Of a stretch of DNA of 64,000 nucleotides, positions 2,414 to 16,776 are shown piece by piece (position 1 is the stretch's first letter; each line of letters starts with the position of its first letter). The stretch lies in sequence record OR352946.1. One strand, given 5' to 3'. The notes beneath the pieces are model-generated. The model did not search any database. It saw only the letters and a list, made by a program, of their open reading frames with translations, and had not been told where the DNA came from. A program made the translations under genes and the position numbers. The DNA is from Escherichia phage AV116.

Positions 2414-2722
2414 TTACATAAGAAGCAAACGTTCTACCGGAGTACCATCAACCGAAATTACTTTATCAAGGCGGAAAGAACGCCACTGACCTAACTTGGT
2501 ATCGAATGCTCGAACTGATTCACGAGGTTCAGAACGAACTTCTGTTGCTGGATTTCTATTTTCATATTTGACTTCAAGTTCATCACGGGAGGCAAACATC
2601 GTACGAACATCACCATTAGCCTTTTCAAATACAACACAATGAACACCTACAGACAGAATAGTTTTAATACGTTCACGAAGAACCATAGTTTCTTGTTCAG
2701 TTAAAATCATATTATTCACCAC
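2414..2722 (-). CDS. hypothetical protein
   Basis: 102-aa ORF between cd and 31. Confidence 0.45.
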   Translation of the reverse strand: MVNNMILTEQETMVLRERIKTILSVGVHCVVFEKANGDVRTMFASRDELEVKYENRNPATEVRSEPRESVRAFDTKLGQWRSFRLDKVISVDGTPVERLLLM

Positions 2723-3293
2723 AAAAGTTTCGAATTTGTTCCCAATTCAGAGAACGAAGATTATTACGAGAGTACTGAATTACTTCAATACCAGCTTGTT
2801 TTAGAATGTCTGCCCAATTTTCAGGAGACCGGTCATATAATTCTGCATATACAACCTTTTTAATGCCTGACTGTGTGATAGCTTTAGTGCAATCAGGACA
2901 TGGAGAAAGTGTCGTATATAACGTAGCACCTTCAATAGAATTACCTTTACGAGCTGCAAACAAAATTGCATTCAATTCCGCATGGATTTCGTTATTAGCA
3001 GACCATGCACTATGAGCAGCCCGATGTTCTTTAGCCAAAACAAAATTATCTGCCCGTCCAAATGCTGTAGTGCCTTCTTTATGTCCAGCAACGATGACCT
3101 GGCTTGGTTTATTCTTCAACCAGCCGTTTTCGGATGCATGTTCGCAACAGTTTGTACCACCTGAAGGAGAGCCATTATAACCTGTAGAAATAATGCGTCC
3201 ATCTTTTTCAATGACGGCACCAACTTTCCATGAACAACATTTTGATTCTTGAGAAATCAAATAAGCAATTTGAAGATATGTGCTAGCTTTCAT
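2712..3293 (-). CDS. cd: dCMP deaminase
   Basis: 193 aa; zinc-binding cytidine/dCMP deaminase motifs (HAE...PCxxC: CEHASENG, LSPCPDCTKA); same length as T4 Cd. Confidence 0.85.
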   Translation of the reverse strand: MKASTYLQIAYLISQESKCCSWKVGAVIEKDGRIISTGYNGSPSGGTNCCEHASENGWLKNKPSQVIVAGHKEGTTAFGRADNFVLAKEHRAAHSAWSANNEIHAELNAILFAARKGNSIEGATLYTTLSPCPDCTKAITQSGIKKVVYAELYDRSPENWADILKQAGIEVIQYSRNNLRSLNWEQIRNFCGE

Positions 3294-4285
3294 TATTGAA
3301 CCTTATTAATATAAGTTAACAGCTCTTTAGTTTGTTCCCAACTGATGCACGCATCGGTAACGGAAACGCCATAGGACATATTATCAGAAATTTTTTGATT
3401 TCCTTCATGTAGGAATGATTCTATCATAATTCCTTTGACCAAATCATTAGCTGCTAAATTTTTACCAATATCAATTTGATTGCTATAATGCCCAGCAGCG
3501 TTTGCATGGCTACAGTCAACCATTACATAATGATTCAGACCTACTGCCCTTGCTTTGTTAGAAGCTTCTTGAATATCAGAAGAATGATAGTTCGGGCCGT
3601 TAGTCCCGCCACGCAATACGATATGCGTATTCTGATTACCTTCAGCTTCAACAATGCCTACAGTACCATCGACGTCCATACCCATATACCGATGAGGCCG
3701 CGCGGCACTATACATCGCGTCTGTAGCTACTTTAATAGAACCATTGGTTGCGTTCTTGAAGCCTACGCACATCGGTAGACCTGAAGCAATTTCACGATGT
3801 GTCTGACTTTCAGTCGTACGGGCGCCAATAGCAACCCATGAGAAAATACCAGAAAGATACTTAATCGTGAATGGGTCTAATACTTCAGTTGCTAATGGAA
3901 GTCCCATACGTAGAAGTTTACGACACAATGTTCGTGCAACTATAAGACCGTGGTTCATATCAAAACTTCCGTCAAGATATGGATCATTTACAAGACCTTT
4001 CCAACCTACGGTAGTTCGAGGCTTTTCAAAATAAACGCGCATCACTAACAGAACATTAGGAAGACGAGTTTGAAGTTCAGCCAGACGTTTGCCGTATTCA
4101 ACAGCAGCAATAGGGTCATGAATTGAACAAGGACCTACAACAATAAGTTTGCGTGGGTCTTCACCGTTCATAATCGAATTAACTTGTTCGCGATGAGAAG
4201 CCACTTGTGATGCGTAAGCTTCCGACAAAGGAATAATCTCAGCCAGTTCTTTTGGAGAAATAAGTTTTCTGACGACAGGTAACAT
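3293..4285 (-). CDS. 3-deoxy-7-phosphoheptulonate (DAHP) synthase, class I AroG-like
   Basis: 330 aa; VMRVYFEKPRTTVGWKGLVNDP, WVAIGARTTESQTHRE and other blocks near-identical to E. coli AroG. Confidence 0.85.
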   Translation of the reverse strand: MLPVVRKLISPKELAEIIPLSEAYASQVASHREQVNSIMNGEDPRKLIVVGPCSIHDPIAAVEYGKRLAELQTRLPNVLLVMRVYFEKPRTTVGWKGLVNDPYLDGSFDMNHGLIVARTLCRKLLRMGLPLATEVLDPFTIKYLSGIFSWVAIGARTTESQTHREIASGLPMCVGFKNATNGSIKVATDAMYSAARPHRYMGMDVDGTVGIVEAEGNQNTHIVLRGGTNGPNYHSSDIQEASNKARAVGLNHYVMVDCSHANAAGHYSNQIDIGKNLAANDLVKGIMIESFLHEGNQKISDNMSYGVSVTDACISWEQTKELLTYINKVQ

Positions 4286-4405
4286 AACAATCCTTAGGAG
4301 ATATAAACAGATTCTGATTCAACAATACCTTTAACCGGATTAGACAGGCTAAGTTGGTAGTGCTCAGATTTATGACCATTCTCGATAGTAATGAGATAGC
4401 TCTCA

Positions 4406-4642
4406 TTATAGTGTTCCATATACTCGAGTTGCTTCAACAAGACCATCACTGCCTAATTTAAGATTAGTAATTTGGTCACCATCTTTAGGATTAACGATTA
4501 TGAGAAAAGAACGTGGAGATTCTTGAATAACTCGTAATGTTGCATCCTGGAAACGTTCAGACACTTTATTGATGAGTGCTTGAGCAAATTCTTTTACTTT
4601 AATCTGAAATTCGTGTACTGTAATTGGATTTTCACTTAGCAT
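4406..4642 (-). CDS. hypothetical protein
   Basis: 78-aa ORF; T4-type early promoter upstream at 4667..4698. Confidence 0.45.
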   Translation of the reverse strand: MLSENPITVHEFQIKVKEFAQALINKVSERFQDATLRVIQESPRSFLIIVNPKDGDQITNLKLGSDGLVEATRVYGTL

Positions 4643-4666
4643 TTCGATTTCCTCATTTTGGTAGAG

Positions 4667-4698
4667 TCATCATAACACAACTCTACAGTGTTGTAAAC
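4667..4698 (-). promoter_or_regulatory. T4-type early promoter
   Basis: GTTTACAACACTGTAGAGTTGTGTTATGATGAC on the minus strand. Confidence 0.5.
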
Positions 4699-4974
4699 TT
4701 AAATTGCAAAACATTTAATTTCTTGTGAATCGAAATCAACTTCACACTGAATTACTAGATCAGCATCAAGTCCAAACACAACAATCACATGAGCCGAGCT
4801 GGGCAACAACGTAACAGACACAGAATCCACTTGGTCAGGCACTAGTGTATTCAAAACGTAGAGTAGTTCAGAGTGGACCTTAAGCTCAGTAGCCGTATCC
4901 AGCTTATCAAAGAAATGATTTGCGATAATCTGACTAAAAACTACCTTTACAATTTCAGAATATTTAGGGAACAT
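4699..4974 (-). CDS. hypothetical protein
   Basis: 91-aa ORF. Confidence 0.4.
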   Translation of the reverse strand: MFPKYSEIVKVVFSQIIANHFFDKLDTATELKVHSELLYVLNTLVPDQVDSVSVTLLPSSAHVIVVFGLDADLVIQCEVDFDSQEIKCFAI

Positions 4975-4981
4975 AATTACC

Positions 4982-5206
4982 TCAGTGCACAGTATTTACT
5001 TTAACTCGAACAACAAATCGCTCGGTCGGTTCACCTACAGGAACAAACTCTACATGATATTCGCCTTTGTATCGAGTATTCAGGTCATTACGAATTCCCG
5101 CGAGTTTGTTGATTAATGTAGGACTCATATTAAGTCCAACTAGTTTACGAAGCATTTTGTATGCTTCATCTTCGATTTCATGATGTTTATCGTACATAGT
5201 TTTCAT
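4982..5206 (-). CDS. hypothetical protein
   Basis: 74-aa ORF. Confidence 0.4.
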   Translation of the reverse strand: MKTMYDKHHEIEDEAYKMLRKLVGLNMSPTLINKLAGIRNDLNTRYKGEYHVEFVPVGEPTERFVVRVKVNTVH

Positions 5207-5377
5207 TTAACCATTCAATTGCCTGGTCGACATTATCAAATATACCACCGTCCAAACGTTCTTCACGCTCATAGTCCATCACATCAATACCGAACTGTCC
5301 ATTTACTAAAGGCCAGGCTACAAACAAATATTCTTTATGATGTTCGATGGCCTCAATCACTTCATATAATCGTTTCA

Positions 5378-5378
<1 letters not shown>
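5187..5378 (-). CDS. hypothetical protein
   Basis: 63-aa ORF abutting pseT. Confidence 0.4.
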
Positions 5379-6464
<1,086 letters not shown>

Positions 6465-9849: not shown

Positions 9850-10352
9850 TTAGAAATATTTTTTGTATGAATTGATTACATTTTGGTCTACATCATTATC
9901 AATTTGTGCGACAAGATAAGAACTGATTTCAACTTCCTGAGGAGCTGCTTGAACTAAATCAGAGTTCAGATATTCACGAATCCAAGGATAAGGATGTTTG
10001 GTCGGAGCATCAGTAATTGGACACGGCAAACCACACTGTTTCATACGAGACACAGTCAAGTAATCAACAAAAGCACACATACTCTGTGTATTGATACCTG
10101 GACATGTACCGTCTTTAAAGAGGTGTGCAGCCCATTCCTTCTCTTGACTATTTACTTCCATAAAAATGTCAACTGCTTCTTGTTCACATTCTTTAGCAAT
10201 TTGAACCCACTCATCACCATCAGTACCGGATTGAAGTTGACGGATAATGTACTGAGTACCCTTGAGATGGAGTTGTTCGTCACGAGCAATGAACTTCATA
10301 ATCTTTGCATTGCCTTCCATAATTTCCATATTCTTATGGAAATTAAATGTAC
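9850..10352 (-). CDS. nrdB: ribonucleotide reductase small subunit, exon 2
   Basis: ORF continues the RNR R2 fold; inferred 3' splice site after G at 10353 so that exon1 ...VSFA + C + TFNFHKNMEIMEGNAK reconstitutes the conserved FAC motif. Confidence 0.7.
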
Positions 10353-10944
10353 CGTTATGTTCGATTGAGCTCGCTAATTCTCAACCCGTTCTCTTATGAA
10401 CTGCTGCATATTACTATGCAGACCAGACTATATCACAATCCCGGAGGGATTCTCCCCATTTCGAGTCGCTTGACCCTACGTCCGAAGACTAGTCGTTGAA
10501 CCTTGCTTTGCAATTGTCGCCGTGCCATCGTTTATATGTCGATGGTGATAAATCTTTCTTTTCACAATATGGACAATTCAATTGAATTCTATTTGGATTT
10601 AATTTGCATCTGTCATTATGTTTTAGATAAAACCCAGGACCTTTACCAATGTGACCGCAGAAATCACATGTGATTTCTTTTTGTGCAGGATGGGTTCCGT
10701 TCTTAACCATTTCTAATGTTTTTGCTGATGTTCTTCCATCAGAATCTTTAGGTATAGGCCCGTTAGCATCCATCCAAATTTTTCTATAATTCAATTGTGC
10801 ATCCTCTTAAAAGTATAATCATATTTATTTTATAATATACTAATTAAAGGTGCAAGCAAAACCTTGGCTGCTAGTTTTCCTATAAAGGACTTTCCAGCAA
10901 TTAAAGGAGTTTTCGATAAACGTTACCGTTTAAAGGCGCATTTT
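10353..10944 (-). mobile_element. group I intron in nrdB (approx. 592 nt; boundaries inferred)
   Basis: Interrupts the conserved NrdB sequence exactly where T4 nrdB carries its intron; contains an endonuclease-like ORF. Confidence 0.65.
10489..10794 (-). CDS. truncated intron-encoded endonuclease (I-TevIII-like, zinc-finger containing)
   Basis: 101-aa ORF inside the nrdB intron with CxxC...CxxC pairs (CDFCGH, CPYCEK). Confidence 0.55.
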   Translation of the reverse strand: MNYRKIWMDANGPIPKDSDGRTSAKTLEMVKNGTHPAQKEITCDFCGHIGKGPGFYLKHNDRCKLNPNRIQLNCPYCEKKDLSPSTYKRWHGDNCKARFND

Positions 10945-11620
10945 ACGCAAAAGATACATAAAAACGAATAGCTTCCAATGCATTGATGACATGCAAACAA
11001 AGATAAAGAGATTTCATTAGGTCTCGTTTAGCTTCGGTCTCTTGTTTAATAGCTCGGTTTAAACGAAGGTCGGCATCAGGAGATTCTTTAGCTTGTTCTA
11101 CAAATTCTTTAGCATTTTCCCAATTACGAGTCTTGACTAGAACATCATCATAATATTTACCTATTGATTCAGCTCGTTTCATGATTGCTTCGTCTAATAC
11201 AATCTCATCAAATACTTTGGATGGATCGGTATAAAGATTTCGCATAATATGAGTATACGAACGAGAGTGAATAGTTTCACTGAATGTCCATGTTGCAACC
11301 CACGTATCTAATGAAGGGTCGGAAAGCAGTGCCATAAGTACCGCAGATGGGGCCCTGCCTTGGATAGAATCTAATAATGATTGATACTTAAGGTTGTTTG
11401 TAAAGATGTCCTGTTGGAACTGAGGAAGCTTATTGAACTGGGCCGAATCCAGCATCAGGTTTACTTCTTCTGGTCGCCAGAAAAACGACAATTGCTTTTC
11501 AATAAGTTCTTCAAAAACTTTATGTCGCTGAATATCATAACGTGCGAGGCCAAGACCAGAACCAAAGAACATTGGTTCATTCAAAACATCGACTTGTTGT
11601 GTGTTAAAAACTGTACTCAT
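10945..11620 (-). CDS. nrdB: ribonucleotide reductase small subunit, exon 1
   Basis: 225 codons of an R2-like protein (diiron ligand region ETIHSRSYTHI); apparent stop TAA belongs to the intron. Confidence 0.75.
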
Positions 11621-14899: not shown

Positions 14900-15211
14900 T
14901 TATACCGCCATTTTAGCTTTGATAGCTGGATGTGATTCGTAATTTTTAAGAACGAAATCAGAATGTGTCATCGTTCCGGTAACCCAGTCCATTTGGATTT
15001 TTGTAGGCCAATTCTCAAAATTACTAGGCCAATTAATTTCAAGAGAACATAACTCTTTAGGTTCACGACGAAGAACTTCTTTGCATTGTTCTACATGATT
15101 GCTGTAGATATGCGTGTTGCCGCCTGAGAACACTAAATCACCTGGGATAAGGTTACACATCTTCGCTACAATATGTGTCAAGGCAGCGTACGAGGCGATG
15201 TTGAACGGTAG
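14900..15211 (-). CDS. td: thymidylate synthase, exon 2
   Basis: LPFNIASYAALTHIVAKMCNLIPGD... TS C-terminal region; the ORF's ATG is the last three nt of the intron (ends ...AATG). Confidence 0.85.
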   Translation of the reverse strand, partial: LPFNIASYAALTHIVAKMCNLIPGDLVFSGGNTHIYSNHVEQCKEVLRREPKELCSLEINWPSNFENWPTKIQMDWVTGTMTHSDFVLKNYESHPAIKAKMAV

Positions 15212-16227
15212 CATTATGTTCAGATAAGGTCGTTAATCTTATCCCGGAATTATATCCAGCTGCATGTCACCATGCAGAGCAGACTATATCTCCAACTTGT
15301 TAAAGCAAGTTGTCTATCGTTTCGAGTCACTTGACCCTACTCCCTAAAGGGATAGTCGTTAGGCATTTATGTAGAACCAATTCCACTTATCAGATTTTAC
15401 ACGGTAAGTAACTAATCCTGATGAAATTTCAAAATGTCTAGCCGCATCGGCTGCACATTCAAAAATAATCCCATCGCATGAAATCTTTTTGATGTTAGCT
15501 GGCTTTTTGCCTTTCATCTTTTCAGATAGTTTAGTTTTAGTTTTTTCTGAATGTTTGTGATTAAAGAACGGGTTATTTTCACCTGAACGTTTTCGGCACT
15601 TTCCACAAGTATCGGCCGAAGATGGTATGCGAACACCGCATTTACAAAACTTGTGGTTTTCTGGATTCCATCGGCCATTTTTACTTCCGTGTTTACCATA
15701 AAGAGCTTTCCGACCATCAGGACCAAGCTTAAGCATCTTAGCTTTAACAGTTTCAGCTCGTTTCTTAGCAATTTCTTCTTTTAATGGATGATTTGAAAGC
15801 ACATCGCCAAAAGACGCATCAGCAATATTATATCCATTAATTTTAGAATTTAGCTCTTTAATCCAAAAATTTTCTCGTTCAATAATCAAATCTTTCTCAT
15901 ATGGAATTTCTTCCAGTATAGAGCATTCAAAAACATTACCATGTTTATTAAAAGACCTTTGAAATTTTATAGAAGAGTGAACACCGTTTTCAAGGTCTTT
16001 AAAATGTCTCTTCCATCTTTTCTCAAAATCTTTAGCACTTCCAACATACACTTTACCGTTTAAAGTGTTTTTAATCTGATAAATTCCGCTTTTCATAAAC
16101 ACCTCTTTTTATATAGAAGTATTTATTAAAGGGTAGTCCTACAATTTAGCACGGGATTGTCTACTAGAGAGGTCCCCCGTTTAGATAGATTACAAGTATA
16201 AGTCACCTTATACCTAGGCCTAAATTA
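15212..16227 (-). mobile_element. td group I intron (1016 nt)
   Basis: 5' end TAATTTAGGCCTAGGTATAAGGTGACTTATACTTGTAATCTATCTAAACGGGG... matches the T4 td intron as recalled; length 1016 nt equals T4 td intron. Confidence 0.85.
15359..16102 (-). CDS. intron-encoded GIY-YIG homing endonuclease I-TevI
   Basis: 247 aa; SGIYQIKNTLNGKVYVGSA GIY-YIG motif, zinc finger CKCG...CGKC; matches recalled I-TevI (245 aa). Confidence 0.85.
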   Translation of the reverse strand: MFMKSGIYQIKNTLNGKVYVGSAKDFEKRWKRHFKDLENGVHSSIKFQRSFNKHGNVFECSILEEIPYEKDLIIERENFWIKELNSKINGYNIADASFGDVLSNHPLKEEIAKKRAETVKAKMLKLGPDGRKALYGKHGSKNGRWNPENHKFCKCGVRIPSSADTCGKCRKRSGENNPFFNHKHSEKTKTKLSEKMKGKKPANIKKISCDGIIFECAADAARHFEISSGLVTYRVKSDKWNWFYINA

Positions 16228-16776
16228 ACCTAAGAAAACATCTACACTGCGTTGATACCATTGTAAATCAAGATGACCATTACGCACATTGAACTGATAG
16301 AACATATGGCAAGGAGGAAGAGCCATTTGATTTATTTCAGCCGGATTCCAGGCAGAAACAATTTGACGACGATCAGTTGGTAATTTTTTAATACGGTCGA
16401 TTGTTTCAACTAATTGGTCTACACCACCAAAATCACGCCATTGCTTACCATAAATAGGACCAAGTTCGCCGCTATGATATCCAAGGTCTTTTGCCTGATT
16501 TTCATAGTTGTCGTCCCAAATAGTTTTACCTTGAATAAGACTACCATGAGTACGAATACGCAAATCATTAACATTGGTAGAACCAGACATGAACCACAGT
16601 AACTCGGCAATACAAGCTTTCCATGCTAATTTCTTAGTTGTTACTGCAGGAAATCCTTTAGTAAGGTCCCAACGTAATTTAGTTCCGAACAGGGCAATAG
16701 TGCCGGTACCTGTACGGTCGTCTGTTTCGTAGCCATTTTCTAAGATATCTTTAATCAGGTATTGGTATTGTTTCAT
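16228..16776 (-). CDS. td: thymidylate synthase, exon 1
   Basis: 183 codons ending ...QRSVDVFLG immediately before the intron; the apparent stop TAA is the first codon-length of the intron. Confidence 0.85.

Follow-up and report, generated by a model that had tools for sequence, protein, structure and literature searches.

A DAHP synthase of T4-like phages with an intact active site and a rebuilt feedback-inhibition site

Within the 64,000 nucleotides of the Escherichia phage AV116 genome analysed here (sequence record OR352946.1; this whole stretch is hereafter called the window) lies a gene for a synthase of DAHP (the 7-phosphate of 3-deoxy-D-arabino-heptulosonate), at positions 3293..4285 of the minus strand. 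The product is a full-length, AroF-like DAHP synthase of type I-alpha; its active-site residues are intact, and the pocket for the inhibitors Tyr, Phe and Trp is altered at six positions, all of them fixed in the phage clade. We think it probable that this DAHP synthase is expressed early, has normal catalysis and escapes feedback by these amino acids, a reading drawn from the sequence. The gene itself is already known, as a member of PHROG 5045 and from more than 200 phage genomes; a published analysis of its regulatory site was not found.

The open reading frame (ORF) for 330 amino acids, with an ATG start, described in a first-pass annotation of the window as carrying long blocks essentially identical to E. 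coli class I DAHP synthase, is present in the sequence, and the blocks VMRVYFEKPRTTVGWKGL and AIGARTTESQ are identical in Escherichia coli AroG and AroF alike. Its placement among the class I DAHP synthases is borne out by family scores, by the fold and by the catalytic residues, all of which are there. The protein matches Pfam DAHP_synth_1 (PF00793; E = 6e-76, 255 bits against a cut-off of 25.5), the NCBIfam aroFGH equivalog TIGR00034 (431 bits; cut-off, 173), NF009395 (458 bits; cut-off, 343) and, over its full length, the PHROG 5045 profile (residues 1-330; E = 1.8e-181). The label 'AroG-type', however, has to give way to AroF-like. The equivalog for the Phe-sensitive AroG, NF006723, was not reached (367 bits against a cut-off of 568), nor was that for the Trp-sensitive AroH, NF009396 (388 bits; cut-off, 463), and at AroG position 211 the phage protein has the Gly of AroF, not the Ser shared by AroG and AroH. 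The best solved relative is the Tyr-sensitive AroF of E. coli (PDB 6AGM/6AGL; E = 8e-105 to 6AGM, about 54% identity, full length), whereas AroG (1KFL) and AroH are each 47% identical to the phage protein.

A structural model supports the placement among type I-alpha enzymes. Built with AlphaFold (AF2) from 44 homologs, it has a mean predicted local distance difference test score (pLDDT) of 95.5 and superimposes on the solved type I-alpha enzymes (DAH7PS) of Neisseria meningitidis and E. coli, AroF included, with a template modelling (TM) score of 0.95 and a root-mean-square deviation of 1.4-1.6 Å. It shows a (beta/alpha)8 barrel with the additional beta6a/beta6b hairpin (strands 198-203 and 209-214), which AroF, AroG and AroH share along with the metal, phosphoenolpyruvate (PEP) and erythrose 4-phosphate (E4P) residues. 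Compared with AroF, AroG and AroH, the phage protein lacks about 10 residues at the N-terminus and has two short deletions, of five and three residues, in C-terminal loops.

The four metal ligands of AroG, C61, H268, E302 and D326, correspond to Cys53 (codon at 4127..4129; this and all other AV116 genes and gene features given below lie on the minus strand), His260 (3506..3508), Glu289 (3419..3421) and Asp311 (3353..3355), and are invariant in all 129 aligned sequences. The residues that contact PEP and E4P (R92, K97-P98-R99-T100, G163-A164-R165, K186 and R234 in AroG numbering) are all conserved, and the KPRT motif among them, which binds both substrates (K88-P89-R90-T91 here, encoded at 4013..4024; AroG K97-T100), is invariant in all phage and cellular homologs. 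With these residues intact, the protein is predicted to convert PEP and E4P to DAHP and Pi. KPRT being intact, E4P is therefore favoured as the substrate over a pentose phosphate.

The first-pass annotation had allowed for action on a different sugar phosphate, a suggestion that finds no support. In this alternative the enzyme would use, for example, arabinose 5-phosphate, as KdsA does, and would feed arabinosyl DNA modification. E. coli DAHP synthases do show weak activity on five-carbon sugar phosphates. Moreover, mosigviruses, the group to which AV116 belongs, carry arabinosylated DNA and channel ribulose 5-phosphate into arabinose 5-phosphate (PMC6024577, PMC13326640). But KPRT and every E4P and PEP contact are canonical, and among the NCBIfam models only those of DAHP synthases were matched, with none for KdsA, the 3-deoxy-D-manno-octulosonate 8-phosphate (KDO8P) synthase. 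KdsA carries a KANRS-type motif where DAHP synthases have KPRT. In addition, phage RB69 arabinosylates its DNA without having the gene, and the papers on arabinosylation make no mention of a DAHP synthase (PMC6024577, PMC13326640). Another sugar phosphate as the substrate is, in our view, very unlikely, and a link to arabinosyl DNA modification was rejected, the papers on RB69, Bas46/47 and DLP3 being silent on the enzyme.

Of the checks proposed in the first-pass annotation, that for loss of the feedback site was the informative one. We compared 98 cellular homologs with 30 sequences of the phage clade. The cellular set is conserved to at least 90% at 120 positions, and at only six of these has the phage clade fixed another residue: P150I, Q151K, D155G, S180P, F209Y and T223A (AroG numbering), which in the AV116 protein are I141, K142, G146, P171, Y200 and A214, encoded within 3644..3865. 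No catalytic residue is among them. Ten positions at which feedback resistance arises had been taken beforehand from the literature (D146, M147, P150, Q151, L175, L179, S180, A202, F209 and V221; PMC9529685), and four of the six replacements fall on that list (Fisher p = 6e-5); a fifth position, D155, has also been tied to the inhibitor site, and P150L or S180F alone abolishes the inhibition of AroG (PMC9529685). At P150, Q151, S180 and F209 the cellular homologs are 92-97% canonical, whereas the phage proteins have Ile, Lys, Pro and Tyr.

A second change affects the N-terminus. The residues equivalent to AroG 2-10 are missing across the whole phage clade, and in the AV116 sequence there is no in-frame start upstream of the ATG of the gene. 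In the cellular enzymes the N-terminal arm (about residues 6-10 of AroG), as seen in the 1KFL structure and from N-terminal mutants of AroF, helps to seal the partner subunit's inhibitor pocket. Neither the canonical pocket (P150, Q151, S180, F209) nor this arm is found in the phage protein, and because the pocket is rebuilt and the arm missing, the enzyme probably ignores aromatic feedback.

A parallel can be drawn with engineered enzymes. The feedback-resistant aroG(fbr) and aroF(fbr) alleles used for aromatic overproduction (P150L, S180F, F209A/S and variants at Gln151) are changed at the same positions as the phage enzyme (PMC9529685, PMC4174253), and the expected outcome is alike, namely that DAHP continues to be made in the presence of aromatic amino acids. 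The phage enzyme differs from them in that it is natural, that several changes occur together and with the N-terminal loss, that the new residues are conserved and that its resistance is predicted.

The position of the gene offers some indication of when the enzyme would be made. Immediately downstream is cd, for dCMP deaminase (2712..3293; family match), whose start codon overlaps the DAHP synthase stop codon in the sequence TAATG (3291..3295), an arrangement that suggests translational coupling. Upstream lie a 41-codon ORF (4294..4419; MEHYNESYLITIENGHKSEHYQLSLSNPVKGIVESESVYIS) and then the homolog of cd.2 (4406..4642; family match to DUF7320). A Shine-Dalgarno sequence, AAGGA (4291..4295), precedes the DAHP synthase ATG by 5 nt and overlaps the stop codon of the 41-codon ORF. 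In the cd.3-cd.2 intergenic region there is a sigma-70-type site resembling an early promoter (4669..4697; TTTACA, a 17-nt spacer, TG and TATGAT), which aligns with a region of T4 that has an annotated early promoter. No terminator-like site was found on the minus strand ahead of the DAHP synthase gene, and no MotA box or late-promoter motif directly upstream of it. The gene is, then, probably transcribed early together with cd.2 and cd, from this putative promoter.

We propose the following course of events. Transcription of the gene would start early, at the conserved promoter upstream of cd.2, and its translation would be coupled to that of cd; with the active site untouched, the Tyr/Phe/Trp pocket rebuilt and the arm that closes it gone, the enzyme would ignore aromatic feedback. 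About 0.1 mM effector suffices to inhibit AroG and AroF fully, their synthesis is repressed by TyrR/TrpR, and a deregulated DAHP synthase is the key lever for the overproduction of aromatics (PMC4174253). With the host isoenzymes of an infected cell under feedback inhibition and no new host transcription possible, the phage enzyme would sustain the flow of carbon into chorismate and from there into the aromatic amino acids, and possibly into para-aminobenzoate (pABA) and folate, and quinones. A benefit to the phage of this kind is an expectation that follows from the predicted activity. The first-pass annotation had suggested an auxiliary metabolic gene, which is a reasonable reading and one already stated for PHROG 5045 and for the copy in Kanagawavirus KLB31, which was proposed to serve aromatic amino acid synthesis (PMC11845039).

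The neighbourhood of the gene can also be read differently. The products that matter could be chorismate-derived cofactors, chiefly pABA and folate for the synthesis of thymidylate and modified dCMP, or the enzyme could chiefly draw off PEP and E4P and so redirect central carbon. Its apparent coupling to the dCMP deaminase gene and its place in the nucleotide-metabolism arm of the genome, with td, frd and nrdAB, speak for this, as does a homolog that adjoins a thymidylate kinase gene in an unrelated 261-kb viral contig. But this is an argument from adjacency, and early metabolic genes cluster in T4-like genomes whatever their pathway; folate is required in catalytic amounts; and the annotation of AV109 has no pab or fol biosynthesis genes in the region equivalent to the window. 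We regard a role centred on cofactors or on carbon redirection as doubtful.

AV116 is a Mosigvirus, that is, an RB69-like relative of T4, and the 5 kb around the DAHP synthase gene share 99.1% identity with Escherichia phages AV109 and AV114. In T4 the order of genes is cd, cd.1, cd.2, cd.3, cd.4, cd.5 and pseT, with no DAHP synthase in the cd-pseT region; the gene occupies the place of T4 cd.1, directly upstream of cd and downstream of cd.2, so that its absence from T4 and its position among the cd.x genes were correctly recognised in the first-pass annotation. In RB69, the type Mosigvirus, cd directly abuts cd.2, and the window has by comparison an additional segment of about 1.1 kb that consists of the 41-codon ORF and the DAHP synthase gene. 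Both ends of this segment are flanked by a near-identical direct repeat of 13 nt, ATAATGAGAGCTA at 4397..4409 and ATAATGAAAGCTA at 3284..3296, which forms the stop/ATG junction. The repeat would fit recombination at the cd.2/cd junction, whether this inserted the segment or removed it. The 41-codon ORF is annotated as hypothetical in AV109, HX01, ZQ3 and Bas46, is not in RB69 and has no counterpart at the same position in the Kanagawavirus records. In other genera, small ORFs between the DAHP synthase gene and cd either encode a protein resembling homing endonucleases or match no family. No further shikimate-pathway enzyme is annotated across the AV109 region equivalent to the window, and the idea of partner genes beside the DAHP synthase was dropped.

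A tblastn search found homologs in 212 phage records, all full length and with intact reading frames; 139 of these are at least 95% identical to the AV116 protein and come from Mosigvirus phages of E. coli and Shigella, 47 are at 60-80% and 26 below 60% identity. The gene is present in about 139 of about 150 Mosigvirus-like records, RB69 and about 10 others being without it. The protein of AV118, which is annotated, is 100% identical to that of AV116, and the copies catalogued in AV118, Shf125875, JS09, PhAPEC2, Bas46/47 and Kanagawavirus KLB31 are the same gene in the same slot, those of other Mosigvirus phages being 98-99% identical. The pseT-cd slot is likewise the place of the gene in Kanagawavirus, Marfavirus, Winklervirus and Bragavirus, as well as in a metagenomic T4-like contig. 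Annotations vary among the records (AroG, aroF, DAHP synthetase, 'putative aldolase' or hypothetical), and a DAHP synthase domain has been mentioned in phiC120 (PMC8022965). The gene is, then, common and annotated in T4-like phages, but a biochemical or genetic characterisation of a phage DAHP synthase was not found in a literature search that lay outside most subscription journals and returned passing mentions only.

Parts of the gene had been noted as richer in GC than the flanking DNA, and acquisition from a host had been proposed on that ground. The rise is real, with 56.7% GC in 3661..3720, a local peak, and 41.2% in the gene as a whole against 37.5% in the window and a mean of 37.3% for its genes; but it is modest, sixth among 85 genes with z = 1.3, and limited to codon positions 1 and 2. 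At third positions the gene has 29.3% GC (GC3), where the mean is 29.0% (z = 0.06), and the codon fit is average (z = 0.11), whereas the GC3 of E. coli aroF, aroG and aroH is 50-57%. The GC bump reflects amino acid composition rather than recent capture. In a search of 5,426 E. coli genomes, DNA likeness to the aro genes was confined to 120 nt, in aroG, at 74% identity, and the best-scoring cellular homologs are 50-55% identical (about 54% for the top one) and come from unrelated phyla. The 30 T4-like sequences form a single clade (87 of 100 neighbour-joining bootstraps), nearest to the AroF type, and amino acid identity between genera, 58-77%, tracks the divergence of cd, gp31 and pseT. Because GC3 and codon usage are phage-like, no cellular homolog is close and the same slot is kept in five genera with a divergence that follows its neighbours, the gene is an old, fully adapted resident of the T4-like phages of Enterobacterales. 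Recent capture of a host aro gene, for which the elevated GC content and its local peak of 57% would speak, is extremely improbable given the composition, the DNA search and the monophyly of the phage clade, and we rule it out as the origin.

Between genera, the ratio of non-synonymous to synonymous divergence (dN/dS) of the DAHP synthase gene is 0.14-0.25, which indicates long-term purifying selection. Within Mosigvirus the picture suggests recent spread. The copies are nearly uniform, with 108 of 139 at least 99% identical in DNA and 98.8% the lowest value among the matches listed, while the adjacent gp31-cd segment is 95.6-97.3% identical among the records listed; in pairs with the AV116 copy, dS is 0.004-0.013 in the DAHP synthase gene against 0.18-0.30 in cd. 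A block at 3255..4604, which comprises the DAHP synthase gene, the 41-codon ORF and most of cd.2, has 97-100% DNA identity to Shf125875, ZQ3 and HX01, and beside it identity falls to 87-91% in the 5' part of cd and to 63-75% in cd.3 and mid-pseT. The simplest reading is that one allele recently spread through Mosigvirus by recombination, as a sweep or by exchange of the cassette. The 'putative homing endonuclease' of Bas46, a 99-codon ORF 2.2 kb away, was considered as the cause of the low diversity of the gene and set aside as too weak.

Such a history could be that of a moron, a nearly neutral passenger that spreads by recombination and has little role in infection. The sharp edges of the block, where identity drops to as low as 63-91%, suggest recent exchange, RB69 lacks the gene, as do about 7% of the Mosigvirus records, and its few allelic differences are mostly non-synonymous. 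However, the frame is intact in 212 of 212 records, the catalytic residues are invariant, dN/dS between genera is low, and the same slot is occupied across at least five genera with equally diverged neighbours; an excess of non-synonymous differences at very shallow divergence is, moreover, expected from polymorphism that has not yet been purged. We consider a passenger of this sort quite unlikely.

Several observations nonetheless weigh against an early enzyme freed from feedback. The gene is dispensable, as its absence from RB69 and about 10 other Mosigvirus records shows, and most of the few allelic differences within Mosigvirus, which fall outside functional sites, are non-synonymous (9 of 13 variable codons). 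Taken together, the promoter scan gave no more sites than chance would, with 10 found and 13.9 expected. Since the 65 kb of AV109 equivalent to the window have no further annotated gene of the shikimate pathway, any benefit depends on downstream enzymes of the host. The case for insensitivity is read from residues only, and several of those residues are kept: D146, G178, L179 and Gly211 are retained, and the Lys at AroG position 151 could still bind a carboxylate. Finally, the rebuilt pocket is constrained rather than decaying, its mean per-site identity within the phage clade being 0.93 against 0.66 for the whole protein, whereas a discarded site would be expected to drift.

Because conservation is higher in the rebuilt pocket than in the protein overall, a different reading is kept alive, in which the enzyme is still allosteric. 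The pocket would have been re-specified, either for a different effector, such as a metabolite of the phage period, or for an aromatic amino acid bound anew, and would tune entry into the shikimate pathway. The six residues and their neighbours are near-invariant across genera that are 58-77% identical, the regulatory beta6a/beta6b hairpin is kept in the model, and K142 (AroG 151), beside the four retained residues, could pair with the carboxylate of a ligand. But P150L and S180F each abolish the inhibition of AroG (PMC9529685), the N-terminal arm is gone, the conservation could be purely structural, the pocket lying at the dimer interface, and no candidate ligand is known. We hold a re-specified pocket to be possible, if rather unlikely, and continue to favour a feedback-insensitive enzyme.

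Changes at overlapping positions are found in other viral lineages, whose DAHP synthases are, as in AV116, of type I-alpha with intact catalytic residues, but are 38-48% identical to the AV116 protein and lie in different genomic contexts. In the group of Aeromonas phage HJ05 the changes are P150A, Q151H, D155P, S180P and F209V, whereas the nearest cellular relatives of the HJ05 enzyme (n = 117) are at least 90% canonical. Neighbour joining places the HJ05 protein with the T4-like clade, which may reflect long-branch attraction given its 38% identity to the AV116 protein. A 261-kb viral contig from IMG/VR has Q151N, D155H, S180P, F209Y and T223S, and three genomes of pandoravirus size (1.8-2.0 Mb) have D146S, P150A, Q151P and S180G/P; in the HJ05 group, the 261-kb contig and these genomes alike, residues among 150, 151 and 180 are changed. 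About 60 type I-alpha copies in giant-virus metagenome-assembled genomes keep the canonical pocket, figures that refer to contigs as catalogued in IMG/VR, where host contamination is possible. The overlap of the changes in separate viral lineages is possibly convergent. Since the pocket is non-canonical in a group of bacterial DAHP synthases from Cobetia spp. too (D146Q, P150A, Q151A, S180G and F209H), such remodelling is not exclusive to viruses. It might be supposed that the phage DAHP synthases are a natural class of re-wired allosteric enzymes, the T4-like pocket (I-K...G...P...Y...A) sensing a ligand of the infected cell and other viral lineages having arrived at theirs independently, a generalisation that we offer as speculative and think unlikely to hold.

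Two of these viral genes have neighbours of some interest. In HJ05, a 79-kb phage unrelated to T4, the DAHP synthase gene (region 3899..5546 of that genome) is directly upstream of a gene for an Acb2/Tad1 hairpin domain, a family of sponges that act against the cyclic-oligonucleotide-based anti-phage signalling system (CBASS) and Thoeris. In the 261-kb contig (1249..4663) the PHROG 5045 gene stands between a topoisomerase-IB-like gene and that for thymidylate kinase, a second adjacency to a pyrimidine-nucleotide enzyme.

Elsewhere in the window, nrdB (9850..11620) and td (14900..16776) are each present as two ORFs split by a segment containing a further ORF (10489..10794 and 15359..16102, respectively), to which AV109 gives the label homing endonuclease. 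These interruptions may be introns; a scan of the whole window at the Rfam gathering thresholds detected no group I intron and no other RNA family. The homolog of gp31.1 (2414..2722), a WYL_2 protein with an SH3 beta-barrel (PF10902), goes under the name 'tail fibers protein' in several records of phages, AV109 among them, a label that is probably an annotation carry-over.

The DAHP synthase of AV116 is a catalogued auxiliary metabolic gene in a group of phages widely used for therapy and as models. What is new is the specific, and possibly convergent, rebuilding of its feedback site; the gene itself was known, and the finding does not open a long-standing question. If the enzyme is indeed feedback-insensitive, a naturally optimised, feedback-resistant DAHP synthase would be at hand, and lytic coliphages would be seen to seize the supply of amino acids or cofactors at the single control point of the pathway, by the solution that metabolic engineers also chose.

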